The notes: a model not told the origin generated them from the sequence alone. 64,000 nucleotides of DNA from Candidatus Helarchaeota archaeon (GCA_029838215.1 JALGVI010000002.1:1-64000); one strand, 5' to 3'. Positions 36,021-63,884 are shown, numbered from the stretch's first letter. Numbers and translations are program-made.

Positions 36021-36992
36021 ATGATTAAAATGGTTTTGAAACTGCTGGAAGCCGGATTTGTAGGATTGATGATGATTTTTCTTCTTATTTTCATCTTTAT
36101 TATATTTAATTCAAGTGGAACGTATGTTAAATTAACGTCTAGTCGTGGTTTTATCCGTTTTCTTTTTCAGTTGGCTCACATCCCTGTAAAAATCTTCAAT
36201 AGGATGAGTTCTTCCGCTCTTTATGAGGAATGGGAGATCGAGAAAAACCCACCTGAGTGGTTACCTCCCGAAGTTGTTTTGTTAAAAGATTCCTTAACAT
36301 GGAAAGATCGTTCATATTTTTGGCATTTGCTCCTGCGTTCGGGAACCCACGCCATGCATGAAAATATCGGAAAAGAATTTTTGCCACGATTGGTTGCTCA
36401 TTCCATCAAAATCATTTTTTCCAGAATAGTCCATGTCTTGATTCACTTTCCGCGCTCCTTGCGTGAATTTCGAGCTCATCCCATTGCAGGGTATCTAAAA
36501 CTCACGGGTTCATTTTCAGGTGGAGCAATTAATTGGATTTGCCATTCTCCTTACAAGAAAAAATTTGTTACGATTACTAGGAAAGCGGGTTTTCCAATAG
36601 GATATTATTATGGTAAGCGATATCTTGAAGATCCTGTCTTTAAAGCCGTAAAAAATGATGCTCTAAAAGCAATGCAATTTATCATGGTCGTATACGTTCT
36701 TTTCGGTCTATCAGGATGGGAAAAACACATTTATCCTAAGAACCAACCCATTGTTAAGATTTCCTCGGCAGATCACGTGACGATTAATTATGAAGGTCGT
36801 CCATATCTTTGTCCTCACCGCGGAATGCGCTGTCCTGAAATTTGTGACGCATTTGTATCTTGGGAAGATGGACTGGTCCAAGCAGTTAATCCCAACCTGA
36901 CATCTTTTGTCGGTAAAAGGCTGGCAGCAGGAGATAACGAATGCGAAGTCATTATCGCTCCAAAAAGTAAAAAATCAACCAGAACAGACTAA
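36021..36992 (+). CDS. Hypothetical protein with N-terminal membrane anchor and C-terminal V4R-like (Cys4) domain
   Basis: Hydrophobic aa 8-30; C-terminal LCPH..RCPEIC..WEDGLVQAVNP..KRLAAGDNECEV. Confidence 0.6.
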   Translation: MIKMVLKLLEAGFVGLMMIFLLIFIFIIFNSSGTYVKLTSSRGFIRFLFQLAHIPVKIFNRMSSSALYEEWEIEKNPPEWLPPEVVLLKDSLTWKDRSYFWHLLLRSGTHAMHENIGKEFLPRLVAHSIKIIFSRIVHVLIHFPRSLREFRAHPIAGYLKLTGSFSGGAINWICHSPYKKKFVTITRKAGFPIGYYYGKRYLEDPVFKAVKNDALKAMQFIMVVYVLFGLSGWEKHIYPKNQPIVKISSADHVTINYEGRPYLCPHRGMRCPEICDAFVSWEDGLVQAVNPNLTSFVGKRLAAGDNECEVIIAPKSKKSTRTD

Positions 36993-37894
36993 GAATCGTC
37001 TTTTTCAAGATAAAGACAGCCATGCTCTTTTAATTGTTCTATCCGAATAATTATTGTTTCAAAAATGATGCGGTTGAAAAGATCCTTGCATTTCGGGTCA
37101 ATTGCCGAAAATTCATATACACGAATCTTCAATAAGTTTTGAATTGCTTCACCTTCTAATGCCCCCTTGAGATCCTGCTTATTTGCGATGCAAATCTTGA
37201 GAGCACTCGGACATATCTCATGAAGTGGTTTGAGTAAGGACATTTTCGTCTTTAAACAATTTTTTGATGTTGAATCAACCACGAAAATGAACATGTACGC
37301 TCTTCTCAATGCATCTTTATCAACAGGTGCGATTTCCCCATTCACGATTTTCCGGATTGTTGTCTTTGACACGTCAATAAGGTTTATGTTCAATGGTAAA
37401 AAAATCGTATTTAACTTAGTATTGGCTTCTTGCATTAAACCATATTGCCTTTCTTCACCGGGAAATGAATCGAAAATCGTGGTTTTGCCAACGCTAGCAT
37501 GACCAATAAGGAAAAAATTTATTTCGTGAATTTTCTCATGGAGTAAAGTCCTATAAAAATCGACATCAACGTACTTGCCTGGTGATTCCTTGATCATTGC
37601 AATTTTTGTCAGCTGATCAAATGTCCGTTCATCCAATCCTGCAAAATTTGGATGCTGTTTACGGATTTTTTTAACGTATTTTTCCCCGCTTGAGTTAACA
37701 GCCAATGGTAGACGCTTGTAACAATCAACAGGACACGTTTCACAACCTTGCAAATATACATATTCAATAGCACGATCAACATTAATCTGAAAAACAAGAC
37801 CTTCATAATAAATGTATACAGAATCTTTCTCAAGGTCTAACTCGAGATTTGCTAAGTATTCCTTGATGAAGTTCTTTTTAGAAAATGCATCCAA
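36989..37894 (-). CDS. Small Ras-superfamily (Arf/Rab-like) GTPase with Cys-containing N-terminal extension and degenerate G3
   Basis: GHASVGKTT (G1), FIFVVDST, IANKQD (G4), FSA (G5); G3 reads DVSK instead of DxxG. Confidence 0.85.
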   Translation of the reverse strand: MDAFSKKNFIKEYLANLELDLEKDSVYIYYEGLVFQINVDRAIEYVYLQGCETCPVDCYKRLPLAVNSSGEKYVKKIRKQHPNFAGLDERTFDQLTKIAMIKESPGKYVDVDFYRTLLHEKIHEINFFLIGHASVGKTTIFDSFPGEERQYGLMQEANTKLNTIFLPLNINLIDVSKTTIRKIVNGEIAPVDKDALRRAYMFIFVVDSTSKNCLKTKMSLLKPLHEICPSALKICIANKQDLKGALEGEAIQNLLKIRVYEFSAIDPKCKDLFNRIIFETIIIRIEQLKEHGCLYLEKDDS

Positions 37895-43234: not shown

Positions 43235-46200
43235 GTGGTCCGCATTAAAAAGTTGGAAATCAATGGATTCAAATCTTTTGGGAAAAAAACGACCATCCGA
43301 TTTGATAACGGTTTTACTTGCATAGTAGGAGCAAATGGGTCAGGCAAATCAAACGTTATTGATGCACTTTGTTTCGTGATGGGACAGTCTTCTTCCAAAT
43401 CAATGCGCGGATCCACATTCTCGGATTTAGTTTTCGCAGGTGGTGCTAATTCACCGGGTTCTAACTCTGCAAGGGTCACGATTTATTTGGATAACGCAGA
43501 TAGAATGTTACCCTTTGATCAAGATGAGGTAATAATCAGTCGTGAAGCATATCTCTCAGGAAAGAGTAAGTACCGACTAAATGGTCGTCAGGTAACCCGA
43601 TTTCAAATTGTTGATCTTTTTTCCTTGATAGGAATCGAAAGTGATGGATACAACATAGTTCAACAAGGAGCCATTGCCAGAATCATACATGCAAATGTCA
43701 AAGAACGTCAGAAACTATTGGAAGACATCTCAGGTATTTCCGTATATGACCAAAAGCGAGAAAAATCTGAGAAAGAGTTAGAAAAAGCAAGTCATAATTT
43801 AGAAAAAGTAGGATATGTTCTAAAATCTCTCAAGGAAAACTTGGAACGCCTTGAAGAAGAGCGATCAGTTGCACTAAAAGCACGAAGATTGGATGTTGAA
43901 ATAGAACATTTGGATAAATTGATAGTTGCCAGTCAGCACGTCTACATTTCAAGAGAGCTGGACGGGATAAAGAATGAGATCGAGACCAAACAAAGAACCA
44001 TTAAAGCAAAAGAGTTAGAAATAGTCAACGTTGAACAAGAGATCGTGAATGAAAATAAGAAACTTCGTGAACTTCAAATACAAGTTCGAAAAATTCGTGA
44101 AATTGATCTCCAAAACCAGCGCGATTCATTAAATTCCATCAAGCAAAATCTTTCGGTTGAAAAAGCTAATCTTAAAAATCAAGTCATTCGTAGAAAAGAG
44201 CTGAAAAGTCAAATTCCCATGCTCATTAAGAATTTAGAACTAACCAGGGATGCAACTCAGGAAACACGACAAATCATTGCTGATCTTAATTCTCAGGAAG
44301 AAAAAGTGCGAGCCAACATCCACGAGAAAGAAATCGACCTGAACGAGACGTTACGAGAAAAAAAATTATTAGACGTGCAAGTTAATCGGCTCAGGCAGCA
44401 AAAGTCAATTCATGAAGCAAAACTCAATGAGTTACAACAGCAATTGGCATTCAATAACGCAAAAATAGAAGCATTGCAAAAAGAATTTGAGATGGGAGAG
44501 AAAGAGCTCAAGAAAAAACAACACGAGCGAGAACAATGTACCAATGAGATCACACGAGCTAAACTTAACACGGACAAAATGCAAGATGAGTTAAAAAACA
44601 TCAAGAAAGACCTCGAAATAGTGTACCGGACAATATCAAATCATGAACAACAAATCATTGCTTTAAAAGACGAACAAAAACAGACTTCCGATCACATTTC
44701 AGACCATTCACGAAAATTAATGCAATTGAAAGAAAAACGTGAAGCAATTAAAAATCAAAAATTAATTGTGGAAACAAAAAGGCATTCAAAGCAGAAAGAA
44801 CTTGATTCAATTCAACTAAGATTACGAGAACTTGAAGAACAGATGAAACTTGAACAAAAATCATTCCGAAAATTGAGCACGAAGAAAATAAGAACGGTCA
44901 GGAAGACCTTAAAAAATGAATTGAAAAACATTCACGAAATACTTGATTCTTTGAACTTGAGCAAGGAAGAATTAGGAAAAGCAGAAAATGCTCATGAAAG
45001 CCAAATTCTTGATTTTACACGTCAAAAAATTGAGCTCTCTACAACCATCAAGACCCTTAAAGAAAACAATAAATTTGATAATTTACCCACGGAATTTTGC
45101 AAGACCTGTCCGCATGTTAAAGAGAAGAAAAAACAATCCGATAGTCATGTCCAAGATTTAATGCTACAATTAGAACACGTCCAAATTACTTTGGAAAATC
45201 TTCGCACGGATCAGACAAAAATTGAAAAGGAAGTTACCGAAATTGAGACTCAACTCTTTGACCTTCAGAACAAAAAGGAAAAATTTGAGGTTAAAATGGA
45301 ACGCTTGTCCGTCCAACTTGAAAATGAAAGAGAAAAAGAAATAGAGAAAATAAAATTAATGCAGAAATTGAATGAAAGTAAACAACAGGTACTAAATAAA
45401 ATTTCAATAGTAATGGATGAGCTTTCAGAAATTTCGAATAAAGAAAAGGAACTCACGTCCCAAGAACTTCTCATTCATCAGGGAAATGAAGTTCACGGAA
45501 TAGAGATGACTCTAAAAAGTCTTAAGTCAAACCTTATAGAAATTCAAGAAAAAATTGAATCCCACGTGAAAAAGAAGACCGAAGTAGATCATCGTCGAGA
45601 AATCCTCGAAAAAGAAATGGATCGTCTAAATTCTCGAATTGGAACGGAGAATAAGAATATTCAGCAGCAACAATTTTTCCTGAACAAGCTTGAAGAAGAA
45701 ATTCGGAATACAAAGAATAAGAATCTTCAGGCTCTCAAGAATCACGGTACAATCAAGATGGCAATCCAAGACTTGGGCATTCAAATTCACGAGCTAACAA
45801 AAATGGTTCAGGATGTCCAAAACGAGTTGAATCAATTCGATTTACAAAAAATTGAAGCAAAGATCTCTAAATTGCAAGAAGAACTTCGCGATTTACGTTC
45901 AAGACATGGAGACTTGAAATTAGAATTAGCAAAAAATACTACAAAATTAAACGATCACTTGAAACCGAAAGAAAATGAACTCCAAGCAGAGATAATTCGC
46001 ATCATAAACCTGAGCTCATCCGTGAAAAACAAAATCACCGAGATTAAAGAGTTAATTGATAATTTACAAGTAGGCCTTGAAGAAGAAACACAAAACGAAC
46101 GTCAATTACTTGCTGAACTTGATGAATTAGTCAAGCATGAAAAACAACAAAAAGAAAAGGTCGACAAGCTTCTTGAAAATGAGAAACAAATCAAGGATGA

Positions 46201-47017
46201 AATTAACACGAGCAAGATAAAATTAGAAGAGCTGATTGGGAAGTCGTTCCATCTTCAACATAAAAAGAAAGAATTGGATCAACTCATTTCAGAATTTAAA
46301 CAGGATGAAAAAATCGCAGAACTCATTCCTTTTGAAGAAATCCCACGGAAAATAAATGAACTCAAGAACAAAAAAAGAGACCGCCGAACCCTTGATCCCG
46401 TGAACATGAAAAGCATCAAGCATTATGAGCAGGTTCAAGAACAATATTCTACGTTCATCAAGAAAGAAGAAGAACTTTTAGATGAACGACAGAAAATACT
46501 TGAGTTTATCGATCAAATTGAAAAAGAAAAACGAGATATTTTCATGAATACCTTCAATGAGGTAAATAAGAATTTTGGATGGATCTATAACGAACTCTCT
46601 GGAGGAGGGAAAGCAAGACTCGTGTTACTTGATGAAGAAGATCCATTTAGCGACATTTCGGGTGTAAACATCGTTGCCAACCCCGTTGGTAAAAAAATTA
46701 AGGACTTGCGACTCGCATCTGGTGGAGAGAAATCGCTCGTTACGTTGGCATTTATATTCGCCATTCAACAATTTCGGCCTGCACCATTCTACATATTTGA
46801 CGAAATTGATGCCGCATTAGATGATTCCAACGCCCGAAACGTGTCAGAAATCATCGCAAAATTCGCCGAAACAGGAAAATCTCAATTTATTGTAATAAGT
46901 CTCAGGGATGCAACAATGGTGAATGCCGACCAACTCATTGGAGTGACGAATGTAGATGGGATTTCCAGCACGTTAGCATTAAATTTAAACGAGATTGCTC
47001 CGAAAATACAAGGATAA
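43235..47017 (+). CDS. smc: Chromosome segregation protein Smc, hinge-less variant with central CxxC
   Basis: GFKSF, Walker A GANGSGKSN, SMRG..SDLVFAG, Q-loop VQQG, PVN joint, SGGEKS signature, PAPFYIFDEIDAALD, QFIVISLRD; the middle is continuous coiled coil with CKTC at aa 622-625. Confidence 0.9.
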   Translation: MVRIKKLEINGFKSFGKKTTIRFDNGFTCIVGANGSGKSNVIDALCFVMGQSSSKSMRGSTFSDLVFAGGANSPGSNSARVTIYLDNADRMLPFDQDEVIISREAYLSGKSKYRLNGRQVTRFQIVDLFSLIGIESDGYNIVQQGAIARIIHANVKERQKLLEDISGISVYDQKREKSEKELEKASHNLEKVGYVLKSLKENLERLEEERSVALKARRLDVEIEHLDKLIVASQHVYISRELDGIKNEIETKQRTIKAKELEIVNVEQEIVNENKKLRELQIQVRKIREIDLQNQRDSLNSIKQNLSVEKANLKNQVIRRKELKSQIPMLIKNLELTRDATQETRQIIADLNSQEEKVRANIHEKEIDLNETLREKKLLDVQVNRLRQQKSIHEAKLNELQQQLAFNNAKIEALQKEFEMGEKELKKKQHEREQCTNEITRAKLNTDKMQDELKNIKKDLEIVYRTISNHEQQIIALKDEQKQTSDHISDHSRKLMQLKEKREAIKNQKLIVETKRHSKQKELDSIQLRLRELEEQMKLEQKSFRKLSTKKIRTVRKTLKNELKNIHEILDSLNLSKEELGKAENAHESQILDFTRQKIELSTTIKTLKENNKFDNLPTEFCKTCPHVKEKKKQSDSHVQDLMLQLEHVQITLENLRTDQTKIEKEVTEIETQLFDLQNKKEKFEVKMERLSVQLENEREKEIEKIKLMQKLNESKQQVLNKISIVMDELSEISNKEKELTSQELLIHQGNEVHGIEMTLKSLKSNLIEIQEKIESHVKKKTEVDHRREILEKEMDRLNSRIGTENKNIQQQQFFLNKLEEEIRNTKNKNLQALKNHGTIKMAIQDLGIQIHELTKMVQDVQNELNQFDLQKIEAKISKLQEELRDLRSRHGDLKLELAKNTTKLNDHLKPKENELQAEIIRIINLSSSVKNKITEIKELIDNLQVGLEEETQNERQLLAELDELVKHEKQQKEKVDKLLENEKQIKDEINTSKIKLEELIGKSFHLQHKKKELDQLISEFKQDEKIAELIPFEEIPRKINELKNKKRDRRTLDPVNMKSIKHYEQVQEQYSTFIKKEEELLDERQKILEFIDQIEKEKRDIFMNTFNEVNKNFGWIYNELSGGGKARLVLLDEEDPFSDISGVNIVANPVGKKIKDLRLASGGEKSLVTLAFIFAIQQFRPAPFYIFDEIDAALDDSNARNVSEIIAKFAETGKSQFIVISLRDATMVNADQLIGVTNVDGISSTLALNLNEIAPKIQG

Positions 47018-49888: not shown

Positions 49889-50755
49889 TCATTCTTTAAA
49901 AATAGGGGTGATTTTTTTCCCAAGATTTTGAATTTTTAACTTCAAGGTTCTCATGAATTCTTTCCAATTCGGTCTAAAATTCTTCGGCAAGTAATGATTC
50001 GTGCTGTTTCCAATATAATTAGCGTTTTTTTCTGCGTCTTCCAAATCAATAAGAATATCATGAAACAAGTTTTTAATTGAAATGTTTTGATGGTAGGCAG
50101 TAATTATCAATTCTAGAGCTTTTTTCAAAGATTTCATGTGAATTTCCAAGTTTACAAGATAAAAAACATCATACATATCTTTTCCCTCTTTCCTATTATG
50201 CAATGCAAGTAGTTTTCTTGCCAAAATGTCTTCTAGCGAGTACGTCATGAACGTGCAAGCCTGAGTCGTTTCCAAATTTGATTTTAATAGCACCTCTTTT
50301 GGTTCTTTTGCAGCAACAACTTTGTCAAGAGAAAGATAAAACTCACATCTAACAAGATCTTTTCTTTGAAATTCGTTAACATACCGGCAATCAAATCTAA
50401 GAGTTCGGTGCATTAATTTTGGTTCGTCCAAATCAAAATTTTCAATTTTATTCATTTGTTGCTTGATGTAATTTATTTTATCATTTAATCCATCAGCAGA
50501 GACAAAATCTAAGTCAATATCTTCCGAAAATCTCTTTGGTTCTTGTAGATAGGCTCTATTTATAGCAGTTCCTCCTTTTAATATTACTTCCTTCGTTCTG
50601 AATAGGTTTTTTACCTGCAGGATTAATTCTGTAATTTTACTATCCTTGCTTATGAAATTAATTCCCAGTCCTGTTTTGATCGCTAAATGCTTGATTATTT
50701 GAGGATCAGCCATGATACCACCACGATAAGATTCTATCTTTCCCGTAATTGTCAA
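49889..50755 (-). CDS. AbiEii-type nucleotidyltransferase toxin (type IV TA); likely start Met at 50713
   Basis: LKGGTAI...RFSEDIDLD, ARKLLAL, KDMYD; the ATG at 50713-50711 lies next to the antitoxin stop. Confidence 0.9.
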   Translation of the reverse strand: MTITGKIESYRGGIMADPQIIKHLAIKTGLGINFISKDSKITELILQVKNLFRTKEVILKGGTAINRAYLQEPKRFSEDIDLDFVSADGLNDKINYIKQQMNKIENFDLDEPKLMHRTLRFDCRYVNEFQRKDLVRCEFYLSLDKVVAAKEPKEVLLKSNLETTQACTFMTYSLEDILARKLLALHNRKEGKDMYDVFYLVNLEIHMKSLKKALELIITAYHQNISIKNLFHDILIDLEDAEKNANYIGNSTNHYLPKNFRPNWKEFMRTLKLKIQNLGKKITPIFKE

Positions 50756-51509
50756 TAATTTTCCATTCTTTTTCGTATTTCCCCTTAGATTTCTGAGTGG
50801 ATATTAATTTAGTCTTGGTCCGAACCCTTTTTTTTAGATATTGCAATATAGTTTCAGGCATGCTAAAATCCACTTCCTTCTTCATCAAATCTAAAATATA
50901 TCCAATTTTCTGGCACATTGAATCAGTTGAAAGCTCCTTGACATATTCAAGGAACTCACTCCAATTCAAAACATTTTGTTGAAATAATGCTTTTGTTATT
51001 TCACTATAACCTCCAGCGTACTGTGGCTTCACAAAGCAATCAAAGAAGGTTTTTTCGATCGTAGAAACATAATACTTTTTATAATGAGTGATTCCTGTAG
51101 CTTTTTTTCCAAATGCGACTGCCCTAAATGTATATTGACCAATTATTTTACTCCGCGATATATTAGGAGTGACTATGTAGATAGTGAAACTTTCATAATC
51201 ACTTAGATCATATATTCGCAACGCGGTCCCTAAAGCCAAATATCCATTATATAAAAACAGTCCTAATTCGAAAGGATCATCCATAAATGGACTTTTCGAG
51301 GGATCTTTTTGAACTAAGTAAACTCCTCTCTTGATTTTATATAAGTAACCTTTTTCTATTAAGCGTGATAAAATCTTATTGACAGTCGTGCCTTTTTTAT
51401 GATAGAATATGTTTTTAATCTGTTCGTTTGTAATTATCCATTCATTTGACTTGAATAGAGGGTTGAAAATTTCTTGTTCGGATTTTGAAAGGTAGATATT
51501 TTTGTTCAT
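50706..51509 (-). CDS. AbiEi-type antitoxin (wHTH plus C-terminal domain)
   Basis: N-terminal wHTH (LSRLIEKGYLYKIKRGVY), YLALGTALRIY, STIEKTFFDC; upstream of AbiEii. Confidence 0.88.
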   Translation of the reverse strand: MNKNIYLSKSEQEIFNPLFKSNEWIITNEQIKNIFYHKKGTTVNKILSRLIEKGYLYKIKRGVYLVQKDPSKSPFMDDPFELGLFLYNGYLALGTALRIYDLSDYESFTIYIVTPNISRSKIIGQYTFRAVAFGKKATGITHYKKYYVSTIEKTFFDCFVKPQYAGGYSEITKALFQQNVLNWSEFLEYVKELSTDSMCQKIGYILDLMKKEVDFSMPETILQYLKKRVRTKTKLISTQKSKGKYEKEWKIIDNYGKDRILSWWYHG

Positions 51510-58823: not shown

Positions 58824-59201
58824 TCAGGCTTTTTCTATTTTTAATCGAGTGCTGAGTCTTGATTTTTTCAACAGCTCTAAATTTTTTGTTATTATTCCAA
58901 CGGGATTTACGGGAGAATACGGTTTACCTGCGTCCGTGTAGATGCAAATTGCATCATTTAATGGCCAGTAGGCAATAATCCCTGGTTCAACTTCCGATAT
59001 GGATGTCTCTTTCCCGATATTTAATCCGATTTTTATGAGTGAATACTGAAAATCCTTGTAATTATTTACTTTTCCCTGAATTGGAAGTAAATCATTGATT
59101 CGTTCCACGGTTCTGGGATTTTTTAATCGATCGAGTTGTCCTTCAATTACTTCAGTTTCTCCCGACATTTTAATGATGATAGGAAAATAGCGCTCTGCCA
59201 T
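58824..59201 (-). CDS. Cyclophilin-like fold protein (TM1367/DUF369-like)
   Basis: PRTVERI..LLPI, VEPGIIAYWP...ICI, PYSPVNPVG. Confidence 0.75.
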   Translation of the reverse strand: MAERYFPIIIKMSGETEVIEGQLDRLKNPRTVERINDLLPIQGKVNNYKDFQYSLIKIGLNIGKETSISEVEPGIIAYWPLNDAICIYTDAGKPYSPVNPVGIITKNLELLKKSRLSTRLKIEKA

Positions 59202-59202
59202 T

Positions 59203-59394
59203 TTACATGCCTCCTTTTAACACAAATCCATATTGGACTAATCTATCACAAACTTCAACTAGTTCTCGTTCTAGATCATGTCGCTTCTTTTCGTATTCTT
59301 CATTTTTAATGGCAGTCTTCTTTTTTTCAAGTAATTTTATTTCTTTCACGAGCTCTTTCTTTCTTTTATTTAATGATTTAAAATCTCTTTCCAT
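59203..59394 (-). CDS. Small helical/coiled-coil hypothetical protein
   Basis: 63 aa, K/E-rich heptads; stop lies 1 nt from the next gene start. Confidence 0.65.
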   Translation of the reverse strand: MERDFKSLNKRKKELVKEIKLLEKKKTAIKNEEYEKKRHDLERELVEVCDRLVQYGFVLKGGM

Positions 59395-59553: not shown

Positions 59554-60105
59554 TCAATTGCTCTCAGTAGGGATTCGTTGTAGTAATTGGGATTTCATTT
59601 GCGTCACATCCTTGCTCAAGCAAAAGTATGTTGCAAAATAGTCGGTCGTTTCTAGAACTTTCGTGCGGTCTTTCATTCTCGTCTTTATGAATTTCTTATC
59701 TTCAAGCTCACGAACGTGTTTGTATACGTGAGAGCCACGAGTTTTTTGAACGAGATACATGGTTACAGGTTGATTTATTGCAATGAACGATAGCGTCTTT
59801 AAGACACCTTCGCTGAGATATCCGGTAGGCATGAATTGCATCAATTTTTTATTGTTTGAGAACTGATCTTTGAGGCTCAGCATGTATGAATCTTCGGAGG
59901 TCTTCGTGATTGATAGGGCGGTTTCCCGTTGTTGATACTCGGAAATTAATTCTTCCAGGGCATTTTTAATTTCCGTGGTTTTTCCCTTCACGGCACTTTT
60001 CAATTCCTTGAGAGTAACGGGACGTCCCGCCAAATATAGCAAGGATTCAATTTCCATTTTGAGCGAAAGTTCAGTCGGAGTTGGCGACGCAGACAAATAT
60101 CTCAC
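59554..60105 (-). CDS. scpB: Segregation and condensation protein B (kite subunit)
   Basis: IESLLYLAGRPVT, LEELISEY, LSEGVLKTLSFIAINQPVT, RG..V.KHV.EL, ETTDYFATYF. Confidence 0.92.
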   Translation of the reverse strand: MRYLSASPTPTELSLKMEIESLLYLAGRPVTLKELKSAVKGKTTEIKNALEELISEYQQRETALSITKTSEDSYMLSLKDQFSNNKKLMQFMPTGYLSEGVLKTLSFIAINQPVTMYLVQKTRGSHVYKHVRELEDKKFIKTRMKDRTKVLETTDYFATYFCLSKDVTQMKSQLLQRIPTESN

Positions 60106-60820
60106 CTTCTTCGGTCATCCATGCATTTATTTTCTTACGATTGATTAAATAACATAGACAAAGCATTGTTCGGATTATTTGAATCCGTGTTGGTTCAGAA
60201 ATCAATTCAATAAATGGCATTCCTGCAGGTTGTTCCTTGATTAAAGAGTAAGTGGAATCGACCAGTTTCTCAATATTCGTGCGAGCTTCTTTCAAATCAT
60301 GAATGTTAAAAGATTTCTTTCGAGTTTTTGTAATGCGCCGTTTCATTTTTTTGCGGTTCTGTTCGTACTTCATGCTCCGAATCGCTCGGATGAGATCTTC
60401 AGAACTAAGATATTTATTCATTAGACGCATTGGGGGACGAATAGGGGGTAACATTTTTAAAGGAACTTGCAAGGAAACAGAATCATTCACATTATTTTGA
60501 ATTATTTCATTCTTATTTTGTCCCTGCACGGAATTTTCTGTGTCAAGACTGCCTGTTTCAGGGTGTTTTTCTTGATTTTTCTTTGATTCTTTACGCGGAA
60601 GCAACGAACGTGATTTATTTTTGTGCAACCTACTCGCCGTAAATAATGCTCTGGCGTTCATGCGTAGATTGATTTCATTTACAAGTTTTTGTTGCTCCAA
60701 GATCTTGGTTAGTATGTTTCCCACGTTATATTTCCAAGGATCAAAATTTTTCGGAGGATTCACTTCGAAAAGGATGTTATATGGTGCTTTCATCCAAAAA
60801 ATCTCATTTGGAGCATTCAT
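60071..60820 (-). CDS. scpA: Segregation and condensation protein A (kleisin)
   Basis: Archaeal kleisin N-motif DPWKYNVGNIL, C-terminal winged helix (IIRTMLCLCYLINRKKI); overlaps scpB by 35 nt. Confidence 0.8.
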   Translation of the reverse strand: MNAPNEIFWMKAPYNILFEVNPPKNFDPWKYNVGNILTKILEQQKLVNEINLRMNARALFTASRLHKNKSRSLLPRKESKKNQEKHPETGSLDTENSVQGQNKNEIIQNNVNDSVSLQVPLKMLPPIRPPMRLMNKYLSSEDLIRAIRSMKYEQNRKKMKRRITKTRKKSFNIHDLKEARTNIEKLVDSTYSLIKEQPAGMPFIELISEPTRIQIIRTMLCLCYLINRKKINAWMTEEGEIFVCVANSD

Positions 60821-60984: not shown

Positions 60985-62649
60985 TTAGGCGGCTTCTTTA
61001 GATGGCTCTTCATAAATTGAAACGTACTTTGCCATGTCCTTAAGGAAATATACATATCGCTTCTTCAAGCCTTCGATTTTAAGGTCTTCGTGTTTTTTAT
61101 CGGCAAGGTTGATTAATCGTGCTAGTCTATTTTCGTCTAATTGAAATATTCCTCTTAGATTGTTAAGTATGTCAAAAACGGGAAATTCTACCATTCCTCT
61201 TCGGATGTATTCTTGCTTGAGAAAGTCGTATATTGCAGCAATGCGTTTTTCATCTTCTTTTGAAATTTTACGGTGCAGCTTAAAGGTGCTGGCAAATTTT
61301 TTGGTTCCCATTAAGAAGAGCGATATGATAAGACTGAGCAGCACTCCCACCACAATAATTGCAGTTCCCGAGTTCACGATAATTTCGAGGAAGGCGGCAC
61401 TACCCAAGATAAATGTCAATTGATTTCTGAGCAAGAAGTAACGAAGAGCAAATTGTCCCATTATGGCAGCATATATGGCAAGAATGAACCCTTCTTTTTC
61501 AAAAATCAATGCTTCGTAATCGAGGTTGATTCCAACGCGTCTTAAAGAGTAGACCATCGAGAAAATCACGAAGAACAATTCAACAAGCACCAATATTTCA
61601 CCCAAATCGCCCAACGCACCACTAGCTCCCCCCGTTGCATATAATAAGAAGAATAAGACCAAATTCAAGTATAAATAGGGATAAATTGACAAGTTCGTGA
61701 CGGAATAAACAAAGCTATCGTATGCTCTTTTCCTTCGATTCTCCTTTTTGGTTCGAAGAGTAATGAGAAAAGGAATGAAACAAAGCAGGCTTACAATTAT
61801 CATGATTAAGAGCGTGAAAAAATTGAGTGTTTGACCTTCTATAAAGCCAAAAATCGTACCATAACCGACAAGAAAATACAATGCTAGAGAAAATGCAATG
61901 ACTCCGAACATGCACAAAATAGGGGCTAACCGAACCAATCCGTACATTAGTTTGGATTCGTGAGAACTCACGTAGCCCTCAGCGTCAGTCGCAAACTTAC
62001 GCGCAAAACTCAATAATGACCATGTCTGAATGAATAACCATGCAATCTCTGCGATAACGATTATGGAAATTGAGATATAATTCACCATCATTAAGCCGTT
62101 AAGGGTGTACCCGTAAAGTCCATATATCAGGTCAAAGACATGGAGAAATACGGAAAATAGGAGAATGAATAACCCAATTTGTGTTAAGGTTGATTTAAAA
62201 CGTGTTTGTCGAAAAATTAAATGCCTTACAGAATCAATAGAACAAAGCAAAGAAATCGTGAAGAAACTTAGAATCAAGCTCGTTGATATGTAGATGGCTT
62301 CCAAGCCCGCTTGATTTACCAAACGTATCGGAATGAGAATTGAATAAAATAAGTTGATGGGGAATATCAGGGTGGGAATTCTCAAAATGCTCAAAAATAT
62401 TTGAAATAGGTCGAATCCTGATGACCCTGAAATGAAAATTTGTGAAATGTAGAGAAAGATGGCAGTGATGAAGAAAAATGCGATAAATATCCCTGTAAAT
62501 AACCCTAAACGCAGGGGAAAAAGAGTAAGAATTGAATCCTTATCCGTTATGCGCGTTGAAACTTTTTTAATTTTTTGTTCTTCAGCATTCGATTCCAATT
62601 CTTCGTTTACGGTTTCTTCAGACATGATATTTCGACCAACTGATAACAA
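60985..62649 (-). CDS. Hypothetical polytopic membrane protein (~10-11 TM) with C-terminal soluble winged-helix-like tail
   Basis: Long hydrophobic run, then RIAAIYDFLKQEY..VFDILNNLRGIF..LINLAD. Confidence 0.7.
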   Translation of the reverse strand: MLSVGRNIMSEETVNEELESNAEEQKIKKVSTRITDKDSILTLFPLRLGLFTGIFIAFFFITAIFLYISQIFISGSSGFDLFQIFLSILRIPTLIFPINLFYSILIPIRLVNQAGLEAIYISTSLILSFFTISLLCSIDSVRHLIFRQTRFKSTLTQIGLFILLFSVFLHVFDLIYGLYGYTLNGLMMVNYISISIIVIAEIAWLFIQTWSLLSFARKFATDAEGYVSSHESKLMYGLVRLAPILCMFGVIAFSLALYFLVGYGTIFGFIEGQTLNFFTLLIMIIVSLLCFIPFLITLRTKKENRRKRAYDSFVYSVTNLSIYPYLYLNLVLFFLLYATGGASGALGDLGEILVLVELFFVIFSMVYSLRRVGINLDYEALIFEKEGFILAIYAAIMGQFALRYFLLRNQLTFILGSAAFLEIIVNSGTAIIVVGVLLSLIISLFLMGTKKFASTFKLHRKISKEDEKRIAAIYDFLKQEYIRRGMVEFPVFDILNNLRGIFQLDENRLARLINLADKKHEDLKIEGLKKRYVYFLKDMAKYVSIYEEPSKEAA

Positions 62650-62663
62650 CTCTTCGGTATAAA

Positions 62664-63884
62664 TTATAAGGGCGCAATTCCGTCGAGTTTTGGTGAGCGC
62701 TCTGGCTTAGGCCACAGCATTATTTTGGGGCTGGTAATTTTTTCAAGCTGTTCGTCTTCGGGGAATCCATACATTGGCGTGATAAAGTCTTCTATCCTGT
62801 TTTTTGTAATGTCTGCCAGTTCTTTTAGAATTGGGTTTTCTGTTTTTGTTTCTAAATAGCTCCAATTTTTATAAGAGTGAAGCAAATAAATCAAGTTATA
62901 TGCATCAGATGCAAGTGCTTGCAAGCATATTTCCTGTTCTTCCAAATATTCCTTGAAATATTTCACGGACTTGATTTTTCTGAGATAAGTTAAAGCCTCC
63001 AAAAAGTAACTGGTGGCAGTAAGATATTCATGACCTTCAAATTCTTGAATTGCAAGAATTTTTAAATATTCCATTTCAAAGAAAATCAACACATTTTCGT
63101 AATGCTTGATTAGATCCTTATTATCGTCCTCTTTCACGAGTTCCAAGCACCGTTTTATGGCTGAAAGTGCACGTGAAACTAGTTCTTCTTTCTTTGAAGT
63201 TATATTTTCATGATATATCGAATTATAAAGGAGATTAAACGCCATTGATTCTAATAAAAGTGCTCGAAATATTTGCTCGGATTTTACGGTAACGGTTCCC
63301 TTAATGTGTTTTAGATTGAATTTGAAGTCGTATAATGCCATGAACTCTTCTACGGATGCGAGCTCATTCATTAGCTTAAACTCTTCAGTAATTTTTGGAA
63401 TGAAAATTAAGATCATTTCCGTTAATCTTGTTGGTTTGGTTCGTTTAATGTCTAATTTTTGAAATTCTTGCAAGTATTTTTGAAGATTTTTCAAGCAGCT
63501 TTCATAATCAGATCGCAAGCCATCATATTTCTTTGTTAAACGCGATACATCCTTTTTAAACTCTTTGAGCTTGGCGGATTCATCTTTTAGCTCCTGTTTT
63601 AGTGATTCCATTTTTTTCTTTAAAGAAGAATCCTTGCTTTCTTTCATTTTTGATTTAACGGAATTTATATCATCTTCAATTTGTTTAATCTTATTTAACT
63701 GCCTGTTGATACTTTTTTTTCGGTTATTCTCCTCAATTCTTTTAAGGTTGTCAAAATGCTTGACGTGATCTCTGTTGATTTCATCCCAATACCTCAAGAA
63801 CGTTTCACAAGCAGTTCGAATCATCATTCTGGTATCTTCATCATTCATTGTCTTCAGCTCGATAAGAGTTTTTAATCTGGACAA
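62664..63884 (-). CDS. Hypothetical protein: N-terminal coiled coil plus C-terminal TPR-like helices
   Basis: K/E heptads over aa ~35-145; helical repeats (ALSAIKRCLEL, ATSYFLEALTYL). Confidence 0.7.
   Translation of the reverse strand: MSRLKTLIELKTMNDEDTRMMIRTACETFLRYWDEINRDHVKHFDNLKRIEENNRKKSINRQLNKIKQIEDDINSVKSKMKESKDSSLKKKMESLKQELKDESAKLKEFKKDVSRLTKKYDGLRSDYESCLKNLQKYLQEFQKLDIKRTKPTRLTEMILIFIPKITEEFKLMNELASVEEFMALYDFKFNLKHIKGTVTVKSEQIFRALLLESMAFNLLYNSIYHENITSKKEELVSRALSAIKRCLELVKEDDNKDLIKHYENVLIFFEMEYLKILAIQEFEGHEYLTATSYFLEALTYLRKIKSVKYFKEYLEEQEICLQALASDAYNLIYLLHSYKNWSYLETKTENPILKELADITKNRIEDFITPMYGFPEDEQLEKITSPKIMLWPKPERSPKLDGIAPL

Follow-up and report, generated by a model that had tools for sequence, protein, structure and literature searches.

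The hinge is treated as a defining part of SMC proteins and is linked to DNA binding and loading. In Bacillus subtilis, the chimera Smc(Zh), in which the zinc hook of Pyrococcus furiosus Rad50 replaces the hinge, is described as functional (Bürmann et al. 2017, PMC5344682), and the interchange of Rad50 hooks and SMC hinges is the subject of a related paper (PMC6969161). ASRPs with a hook constitute a separate family (PMC9389158), and a hinge-less SMC without a CxxC motif is known from marine Actinobacteria (Sussfeld et al. 2025, PMC12153180). We came across no account of a natural true Smc with a hook in the searchable literature. Here we describe a candidate, encoded in a 64,000-nucleotide stretch of DNA from Candidatus Helarchaeota archaeon (GCA_029838215.1, JALGVI010000002.1:1-64000), which as a whole is called the window below. 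The hook-type smc gene is one open frame at 43235-47017(+), with a GTG start, 1260 codons and a stop at 47015-47017, and its product is referred to as P0001. We consider it probable that P0001 is a true condensin-type Smc in which a CxxC zinc hook at the apex takes the place of the hinge, and that it forms a second Smc-ScpAB ring. A preliminary description of the window had already read the gene as an Smc with a zinc hook in place of its hinge; this reading was supported and withstood each of the tests that the description itself had named.

The heads of P0001 are Smc-type. A split ABC-type head is encoded at the two ends of the frame (SMC_N, 1.8e-47 over aa 4-1241; several other P-loop families of Pfam were matched besides), its N-terminal half at aa 1-170 (43235-43744, +) and its C-terminal half at aa 1053-1260 (46391-47014, +). 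The ATPase motifs are complete, with Walker A at G32-N40 (nt 43328-43354), the Q-loop at Q144, the signature SGGEKS at S1162-S1167 (nt 46718-46735), Walker B FYIFDE at F1185-E1190 (nt 46787-46804) and a D-loop reaching to D1196. All head motifs listed in the preliminary description were present, among them QFIVISLRD, which it had named and which is the usual archaeal Smc form, matching the consensus of our alignment A2; only LDPVNMKSI (aa 1053-1061) had to be reassigned, as it opens the C-terminal head and is not part of the joint. The sole close relative, P0002, is a 1099-aa protein from a separate sample (Logan run SRR31155650) and is 51% identical overall. Compared with P0002, the N-terminal head half of P0001 shows 79% identity and the C-terminal half 76%; the values for Pyrococcus Smc are 52% and 53%, respectively, and the N-terminal half shares 42% with the hinge-bearing Smc of its own genome. 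Identity of the heads to Thorarchaeota Smc was ~46-51%, and to the hinge-bearing Smc of the same genome 42-49%. Head-only trees were calculated under LG+C20 from 74 rows with a quick search and from 57 rows with a careful search, using Rad50 as outgroup and leaving out bacterial Smc, eukaryotic SMC1-6, MukB and ASRP sequences. Both trees paired P0001 with P0002 at full support and placed the two within archaeal Smc, with Asgard sequences around them and well away from the Rad50 of the genome and the SMC5/6-like second type of its relatives. In the careful tree Hod- and Thorarchaeota Smc were their neighbours, a weakly supported placement (84/78). P0001 is a paralogue that probably arose within Asgard archaeal Smc. 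When the full-length AlphaFold2 (AF2) model of P0002 was compared with the PDB, yeast condensin Smc (6yvu) and Pyrococcus Smc head structures were the top matches, with Rad50 at rank 20; TM values by target length were 0.73-0.94 for Pyrococcus 5xei, 5xns and 4i99 (0.89-0.94 for 5xns and 4i99), and these matches include Pyrococcus Smc head-ScpA structures.

Scores of P0001 against NCBIfam models were 581 bits for TIGR02169 and 542 for TIGR02168, compared with 99 for ASRP, at most 75 for Rad50 and 48 for RecN. Assignment to Rad50 was rejected from the scores (18-75 bits against cut-offs of 454-1087), the tree and the lack of an Mre11 gene near the smc gene, and assignment to ASRP (NF045487) from a score of 98.6 bits against a cut-off of 300, with tree and gene context also considered. 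The preliminary description had asked whether the heads might group with Rad50 or ASRP; the trees placed them with archaeal Smc and not with Rad50, and ASRP was set aside by score.

P0001 has no hinge. The central hinge dimerisation domain (SMC_hinge, PF06470) gave no Pfam match in P0001 even at E<=1, and a custom hinge hidden Markov model built from 47 hinge-bearing rows of alignment A2 also found none, compared with at least 25 bits on 232 of 267 Smc-type proteins. Likewise, no folded domain between the arms was seen in the AF2 models (aa 440-810 of P0001; full-length P0002), so that the absence of a hinge, as first claimed from the bare sequence, was borne out by all three approaches. P0001 missed the equivalog cut-offs of both SMC_prok_A (TIGR02169; 581.4 versus 729.4 bits) and SMC_prok_B (TIGR02168; 541.7 versus 567.35 bits), as expected from the ~165 hinge positions of the model that are missing. 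Its rarity and the 581 bits against a cut-off of 729.4 might also be explained by a decaying, non-functional duplicate or an assembly artefact. We find this hardly credible: the shortfall is that expected from the missing hinge positions, all 1260 codons are open and no ATPase motif is missing, and the heads are 76-79% identical between two lineages with diverged arms. A misassembly in the middle of the gene, which the preliminary description had named as a possible pitfall, is unlikely because the identical 1260-aa protein is annotated at NCBI in three assemblies (GCA_054383755.1, GCA_054381475.1 and GCA_054384155.1) and the same architecture occurs in the independent sample.

In the place of the hinge lies a CxxC motif. 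P0001 contains only five cysteines (29, 46, 435, 622 and 625), and the only prolines of its arms are 328, 618, 626, 911, 1032 and 1037. The N-terminal coiled-coil strand (aa 171-616; 43745-45082, +) is helical in AF2 models, with a heptad signal and one proline (328); the apex motif LPTEFCKTCPH (aa 617-627; 45083-45115, +) is the proposed zinc hook; and the C-terminal strand (aa 628-1052; 45116-46390, +), which includes the conserved segment TKLNDHLKPKENELQAEIIRIINLSSS at aa 903-929, is helical with breaks that pair with those of the N-terminal strand. AF2 modelling of aa 440-810, run without an alignment, led to a hairpin with a mean predicted local distance difference test score (pLDDT) of 82, helical except for a single loop at aa 612-625 (NKFDNLPTEFCKTC) and brief interruptions at two places, around aa 545-547 and 749-750. 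The CKTC of the preliminary description (aa 622-625, nt 45098-45109) was thereby confirmed in the only loop of the hairpin model. Among PDB entries, this hairpin model matched the C. thermophilum Rad50 coil (7zr1) best; generic antiparallel coils came next, including arm fragments of MukB, Smc and Smc5/6. The tip sequence gave no match to PDB chains at E<=10.

The strongest evidence for a CxxC at the apex is the sequence comparison of P0001 with P0002. L617, P618, T619, C622, C625, P626 and H627 are invariant (LPTxxCxxCPH), and P0002 has 81 residues fewer directly before the motif (aa 535-615 of P0001, an N-strand tip extension at 44837-45079, +) and 80 fewer directly after it (aa 640-652 and 659-725, a C-strand tip extension at 45152-45409, +). 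Equal losses on both strands are what an antiparallel coil folding back at the motif requires, so the CxxC sits at the fold-back point, and both the conservation of the motif and its position, on which the preliminary description had rested its case, hold in the only orthologue. The symmetric change of 81 and 80 residues is also a natural example of a change in SMC arm length; an internal duplication as the source of the extension was considered and dropped, as only weak similarities at the level of coiled coils were seen. Arms of ~450 aa, as stated before, apply to P0001 (~446/425 aa) and are not general, since those of P0002 measure only ~365/345 aa.

Two copies of aa 560-690 were then modelled together with one zinc, which gave a dimer model score of 0.45, compared with 0.00 for the best of three controls; 21 of the 30 solved one-chain pairs used for calibration attained the mark, and 0 of the 23 solved single chains. 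Runs shared at least 76% of their contacts with a partner pLDDT of at least 80, and the predicted interface was formed by aa 596-611 of both copies together with C622 and C625-628. As in Rad50, the CxxC lies at the apex, judged by the predicted fold-back point and the predicted interface. Most of the low-error contacts were helix-helix contacts at aa 596-611 and not contacts between cysteines. The model supports dimerisation at the tip without showing it, and its pass may reflect a likeness to solved Rad50 hooks and not new evidence.

The genome (3.6 Mb in 170 contigs, 94% complete) encodes a second Smc. The preliminary description had raised the question of a further hinge-bearing smc, and one is present on contig C51 (1189 aa, SMC_hinge 31.6 bits), which makes the hook-type gene the second Smc of the genome. 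Upstream of the C51 gene (locus L018, 18000-36000) are a kleisin-like gene without Pfam hit and two ScpB-type kites (306 and 322 aa), with a Rag/Gtr1-like GTPase gene between the kites, and a separate Mre11-Rad50 pair is found on contig C103, the hook of this Rad50 reading CTSC. The window has its own presumed partner genes. A 249-aa ScpA-like kleisin is encoded at 60071-60820(-), its N-terminal SMC_ScpA match (5.6e-5, 23.7 bits) being just under the cut-off, and it is 49% identical to its counterpart beside P0002 and 21% (E 1e-5) to the kleisin-like protein of C51. The overlapping gene at 59554-60105(-) encodes a 183-aa ScpB kite (SMC_ScpB 1.1e-30), 66% identical to the ScpB on the P0002 contig. 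Next to scpB, at 58824-59394(-), are a gene for a 125-aa cyclophilin-like protein and a 63-aa gene, and the same pair stands beside scpA and scpB on the P0002 contig; the cyclophilin-like protein, 70% identical between the two, is a conserved neighbour without known Smc link. This set of four genes lies 12.5 kb downstream of the hook-type smc in the window and within 5 kb on the P0002 contig, so that linkage with a private scpA-like/scpB pair, as genes, is conserved in both genomes.

The six other genomes of the order were searched for the same features, and neither the hook tip (present in one of the seven) nor orthologues of the ScpA/ScpB pair were found in them; the best ScpB matches in the order were at most 34% identical and located beside the hinge-type Smc. 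Within the order, hook-Smc, ScpA and ScpB therefore behave like a single module whose parts occur or are missing together. Five of these six genomes contain a second, more distant and hinge-bearing Smc, here called type B, with heads ~31% identical to those of P0001, which was not found in the genome studied here. Type B probably corresponds to the SMC5/6-related type reported from TACK and Asgard archaea (bioRxiv 10.1101/2024.01.07.573240). Its heads are of an ITNFKTF type and branch near the root of the Smc tree (loci L032, L034, L035 and L037, from genomes G006, G004, G005 and G003, respectively). We suggest only tentatively, as a possibility that is rather unlikely, that hook-Smc with its private kleisin and kite is an additional Asgard-specific complex that in this lineage fills in for the type B complex of the relatives, the hook serving as an orthogonal, insulating joint. 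If this were true, it would be a natural paralogue-insulating solution to a problem for which eukaryotes use specific hinge pairs, and DNA loading independent of a hinge could be studied in a native system.

Between the hook-type smc and scpAB lie an AbiEii nucleotidyltransferase toxin gene and an overlapping AbiEi-like antitoxin gene (49889-51509, -). This toxin-antitoxin pair 3 kb away, the patchy occurrence of a second copy in one of seven genomes of the order, and PADLOC matches to mad3 (158 bits) and LmuB (67 bits) could be taken to mean that P0001 is a specialised defence or repair SMC (Wadjet/Lamassu-like, Rad50-like or ASRP-like) and not a chromosome-organising condensin. This appears very improbable, as the PADLOC matches fall on generic head regions with far fewer bits than the 581 obtained for Smc, the gene has no nuclease or JetA/B/D-like neighbour, the linked partners are of ScpA/ScpB type, the genome has its own Mre11-Rad50 on C103, and the base composition of the gene is like that of the rest of the window except for the Lys/Glu-rich coil. 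Direct assignment to the defence SMCs JetC (Wadjet) or LmuB (Lamassu) was rejected, with at most 29 bits for JetC and 67 for LmuB and neither JetA/B/D nor LmuA/C neighbours, and the search for a foreign-DNA origin by composition gave nothing specific. Readings of P0001 as a defence protein, a repair protein or a pseudogene find little support, and a condensin-type Smc with a hook remains the preferred one.

An exhaustive search of 1.84 billion cluster representatives placed only P0001 and P0002 above ordinary Smc (931 bits, versus 383 for the next), and two metagenome contig scans detected no further member of the clade, the sole locus (L061) encoding an unrelated protein. A third ScpB of the hook-Smc-linked type (P0270, 62% identical) was observed on an 858-bp ENA contig too short for an smc gene, and its sequence points to at least one further organism with the module. 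Hinge-less Smcs also occur in DPANN archaea. A group of Pace- and Woesearchaeota Smcs of 946-973 aa has a CPxC at the exact midpoint, no hinge and 515-553 bits with TIGR02169 (DPANN proteins P0079, P0203, P0222, P0233, P0239 and P0240; hook loci L040, L042 and L043, cysteine-free loci L045, L046 and L047). Five DPANN genomes, including the chromosome-level records CP070794.1 and CP061211.1 (the latter labelled complete), give no SMC_hinge match anywhere and contain the hinge-less protein as their single strong Smc gene, together with one ScpA and one ScpB; three of these five Smcs have CPKC or CPRC, and two are 801-aa cysteine-free forms nested inside the hook clade. In the head tree this clade is sister to the hinge-bearing Smc of DPANN, and an approximately unbiased (AU) test, for a group named after the tree had been seen, rejected DPANN and the Asgard hook pair as one clade (p 0.0009). 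Since the DPANN clade is separate from the Asgard pair by tree and AU test, the hinge was swapped for a hook at least twice, and the natural hook-Smc proposed in the preliminary description is no isolated case. The best PDB alignment of P0079 (aa 430-540) was to the Pyrococcus Rad50 hook 1l8d (CPKCKQKITKEYREKL versus CPVCGRELTDEHREEL), non-significant at E 0.55, a sequence likeness which hints that the DPANN hook may derive from a Rad50 gene. The Asgard hook CKTCPH showed no such likeness to the Pyrococcus Rad50 hook.

Further hinge-less proteins were observed among Smc-type sequences. Those of Lokiarchaeia (1461-1505 aa) have neither hinge nor CxxC, their middle being a cysteine-free helical segment (P0042, P0047 from Ca. 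Lokiarchaeum ossiferum, P0051, P0053-P0056, P0061, P0147, P0151, P0160, P0165 and P0196; P0159 with 1296 aa), and in the head tree their sister group is the hinge-type Smc of the order to which this genome belongs. Short Smc-type proteins (P0138, P0180, P0198 and P0265 with 706-770 aa; also P0154, P0190 and P0220) again show neither hinge nor CxxC; four of them were scanned, with 540-658 bits for TIGR02169, and four form a clade of their own with support 100/99.

Several observations weigh against a zinc hook in P0001 or against its partnership with ScpAB. Some members of the DPANN hook clade have lost their cysteines, so that a hook is not strictly needed for a hinge-less Smc. In the full-length AF2 model of P0002, calculated from a 53-row alignment of mostly hinge-bearing Smcs, heads are confident and the long helical arms show paired breaks, but the tip is not resolved (pLDDT <50, aa 528-586) and neither supports nor contradicts a hook. 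As judged from sequence, the clade is defined by two members, so conservation of the CxxC amounts to one comparison. We know of no counterpart in Rad50 hooks of the conserved His627 behind the second cysteine, and the metal site may differ. Finally, scpAB of the window is 12.5 kb away from smc, with unrelated genes between and no shared operon.

The main rival reading, kept open by the cysteine-free hinge-less Smcs, is that of a hinge-less Smc with a plain hairpin tip, in which no zinc bridge links the cysteines of two molecules; together with His627 they might instead make up a metal or redox site within one molecule, or their role might be purely structural. Dimers would then be held together by arm-arm packing and head engagement, as must hold for the cysteine-free proteins. 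Such proteins are known from DPANN (801-809 aa, inside the hook clade), Lokiarchaeia (1461-1505 aa) and marine Actinobacteria (PMC12153180), and the preponderance of helix-helix over Cys-Cys contacts in the dimer model would fit as well. We nevertheless regard a plain hairpin as unlikely, because the CxxC and its flanking prolines are invariant at 51% overall identity while 161 nearby tip residues were gained or lost, both cysteines of both copies lie within the predicted interface, and a midpoint CxxC recurs independently in DPANN Smc as CPxC.

In the hook-bearing Smc that we prefer, a short Cys-x-x-Cys hook would take the place of the hinge dimerisation domain where the antiparallel coiled coil has its tip. 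A pair of protomers would most likely be joined there by a zinc shared between their cysteine pairs, in a Rad50-like manner, and the neighbouring N-strand helices (aa 596-611) would lie alongside each other and form a rod. ATP would be bound and hydrolysed by the intact ABC heads, which would presumably pair with the proteins encoded 12.5 kb away, being bridged by the ScpA-like kleisin and the ScpB kite, and the result would be a second Smc-ScpAB ring, beside the hinge-type Smc complex of the genome, that may entrap DNA or extrude loops. Hook and hinge may act as incompatible joints, as they could not pair with each other, and would so keep the two paralogues from forming mixed dimers. With a hook-Smc beside a hinge-type Smc in one 3.6-Mb Asgard genome, two joints become comparable in one cell, unlike in the DPANN cases. 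This bears on how paralogous SMC complexes are kept separate, a matter of relevance to how eukaryotes came by their several SMC complexes from Asgard-like ancestors (bioRxiv 10.1101/2024.01.07.573240). The weight of these considerations is limited by a clade of two sequences, by a case built on predictions and by the engineered precedent for the general idea.

Two other genes of the window were observed. A 406-aa coiled-coil-rich protein is encoded at 62664-63884(-), two genes upstream of scpA and past a 554-aa gene at 60985-62649(-). In PADLOC it matched nothing but the coil parts of PbeC and DndD, and these weakly (E ~1e-6). A 301-aa protein encoded at 36989-37894(-) has an Arf-family small-GTPase domain (Pfam 3.9e-6), consistent with an Asgard origin.

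Compared with known systems, P0001 shares with Rad50/SbcC the CxxC at the apex of an antiparallel coil, and 7zr1 is the best match of its tip hairpin, but its heads are not Rad50-type (75 bits versus a cut-off of 700) and no Mre11 gene is adjacent. Like the ASRPs (ClsN/coalescin, Sph1/2; NF045487; PMC9389158), it is an archaeal SMC-superfamily ATPase with a zinc-hook motif; in contrast, the NF045487 model has 593 positions against the 1260 aa of P0001, and the accessible text of PMC9389158 describes no ScpAB partnership for ASRPs. The hinge-less Smcs of marine Actinobacteria and Lokiarchaeia are alike in Smc-type heads and arms without hinge, whereas they carry no CxxC and their tips are cysteine-free helical segments. 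DPANN hook-Smcs (e.g. Pacearchaeota P0079, annotated as 'chromosome segregation SMC family protein', CP070794.1 and JAWAPZ010000003.1) agree in Smc heads, absence of a hinge and a midpoint CxxC, but are of independent origin and shorter (~970 aa, with shorter arms), have a CPxC like that of Rad50 and are the only Smc of small genomes. To the prokaryotic and archaeal Smc of Smc-ScpAB (TIGR02169/TIGR02168; Pyrococcus Smc 5xei, 5xns, 4i99), P0001 is similar in head sequence, motifs, predicted fold and tree position, in long antiparallel arms with paired breaks and in linked ScpA-like and ScpB genes; it differs in the 11-residue CxxC motif in the place of the hinge, in arms of ~446/425 aa (roughly 330/300 in Pyrococcus), in scores under the equivalog cut-off and in its coexistence with a hinge-bearing Smc. 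With B. subtilis Smc(Zh), P0001 has in common the Smc heads, the arms and a CxxC hook at their tip, in P0001 the proposed joint, yet it is natural and known from its sequence, with a hook of its own (CKTCPH) without detectable match to solved Rad50 hooks and with private ScpAB genes. The expectation that it would test the need for a hinge has to be restated, as an Smc(Zh) chimera described as functional was already made (PMC5344682), and the hook-Smc is a natural parallel and not a first test: evolution would have made the same hinge-to-hook substitution as was engineered in B. subtilis, with the heads intact and its own ScpA and ScpB kept.

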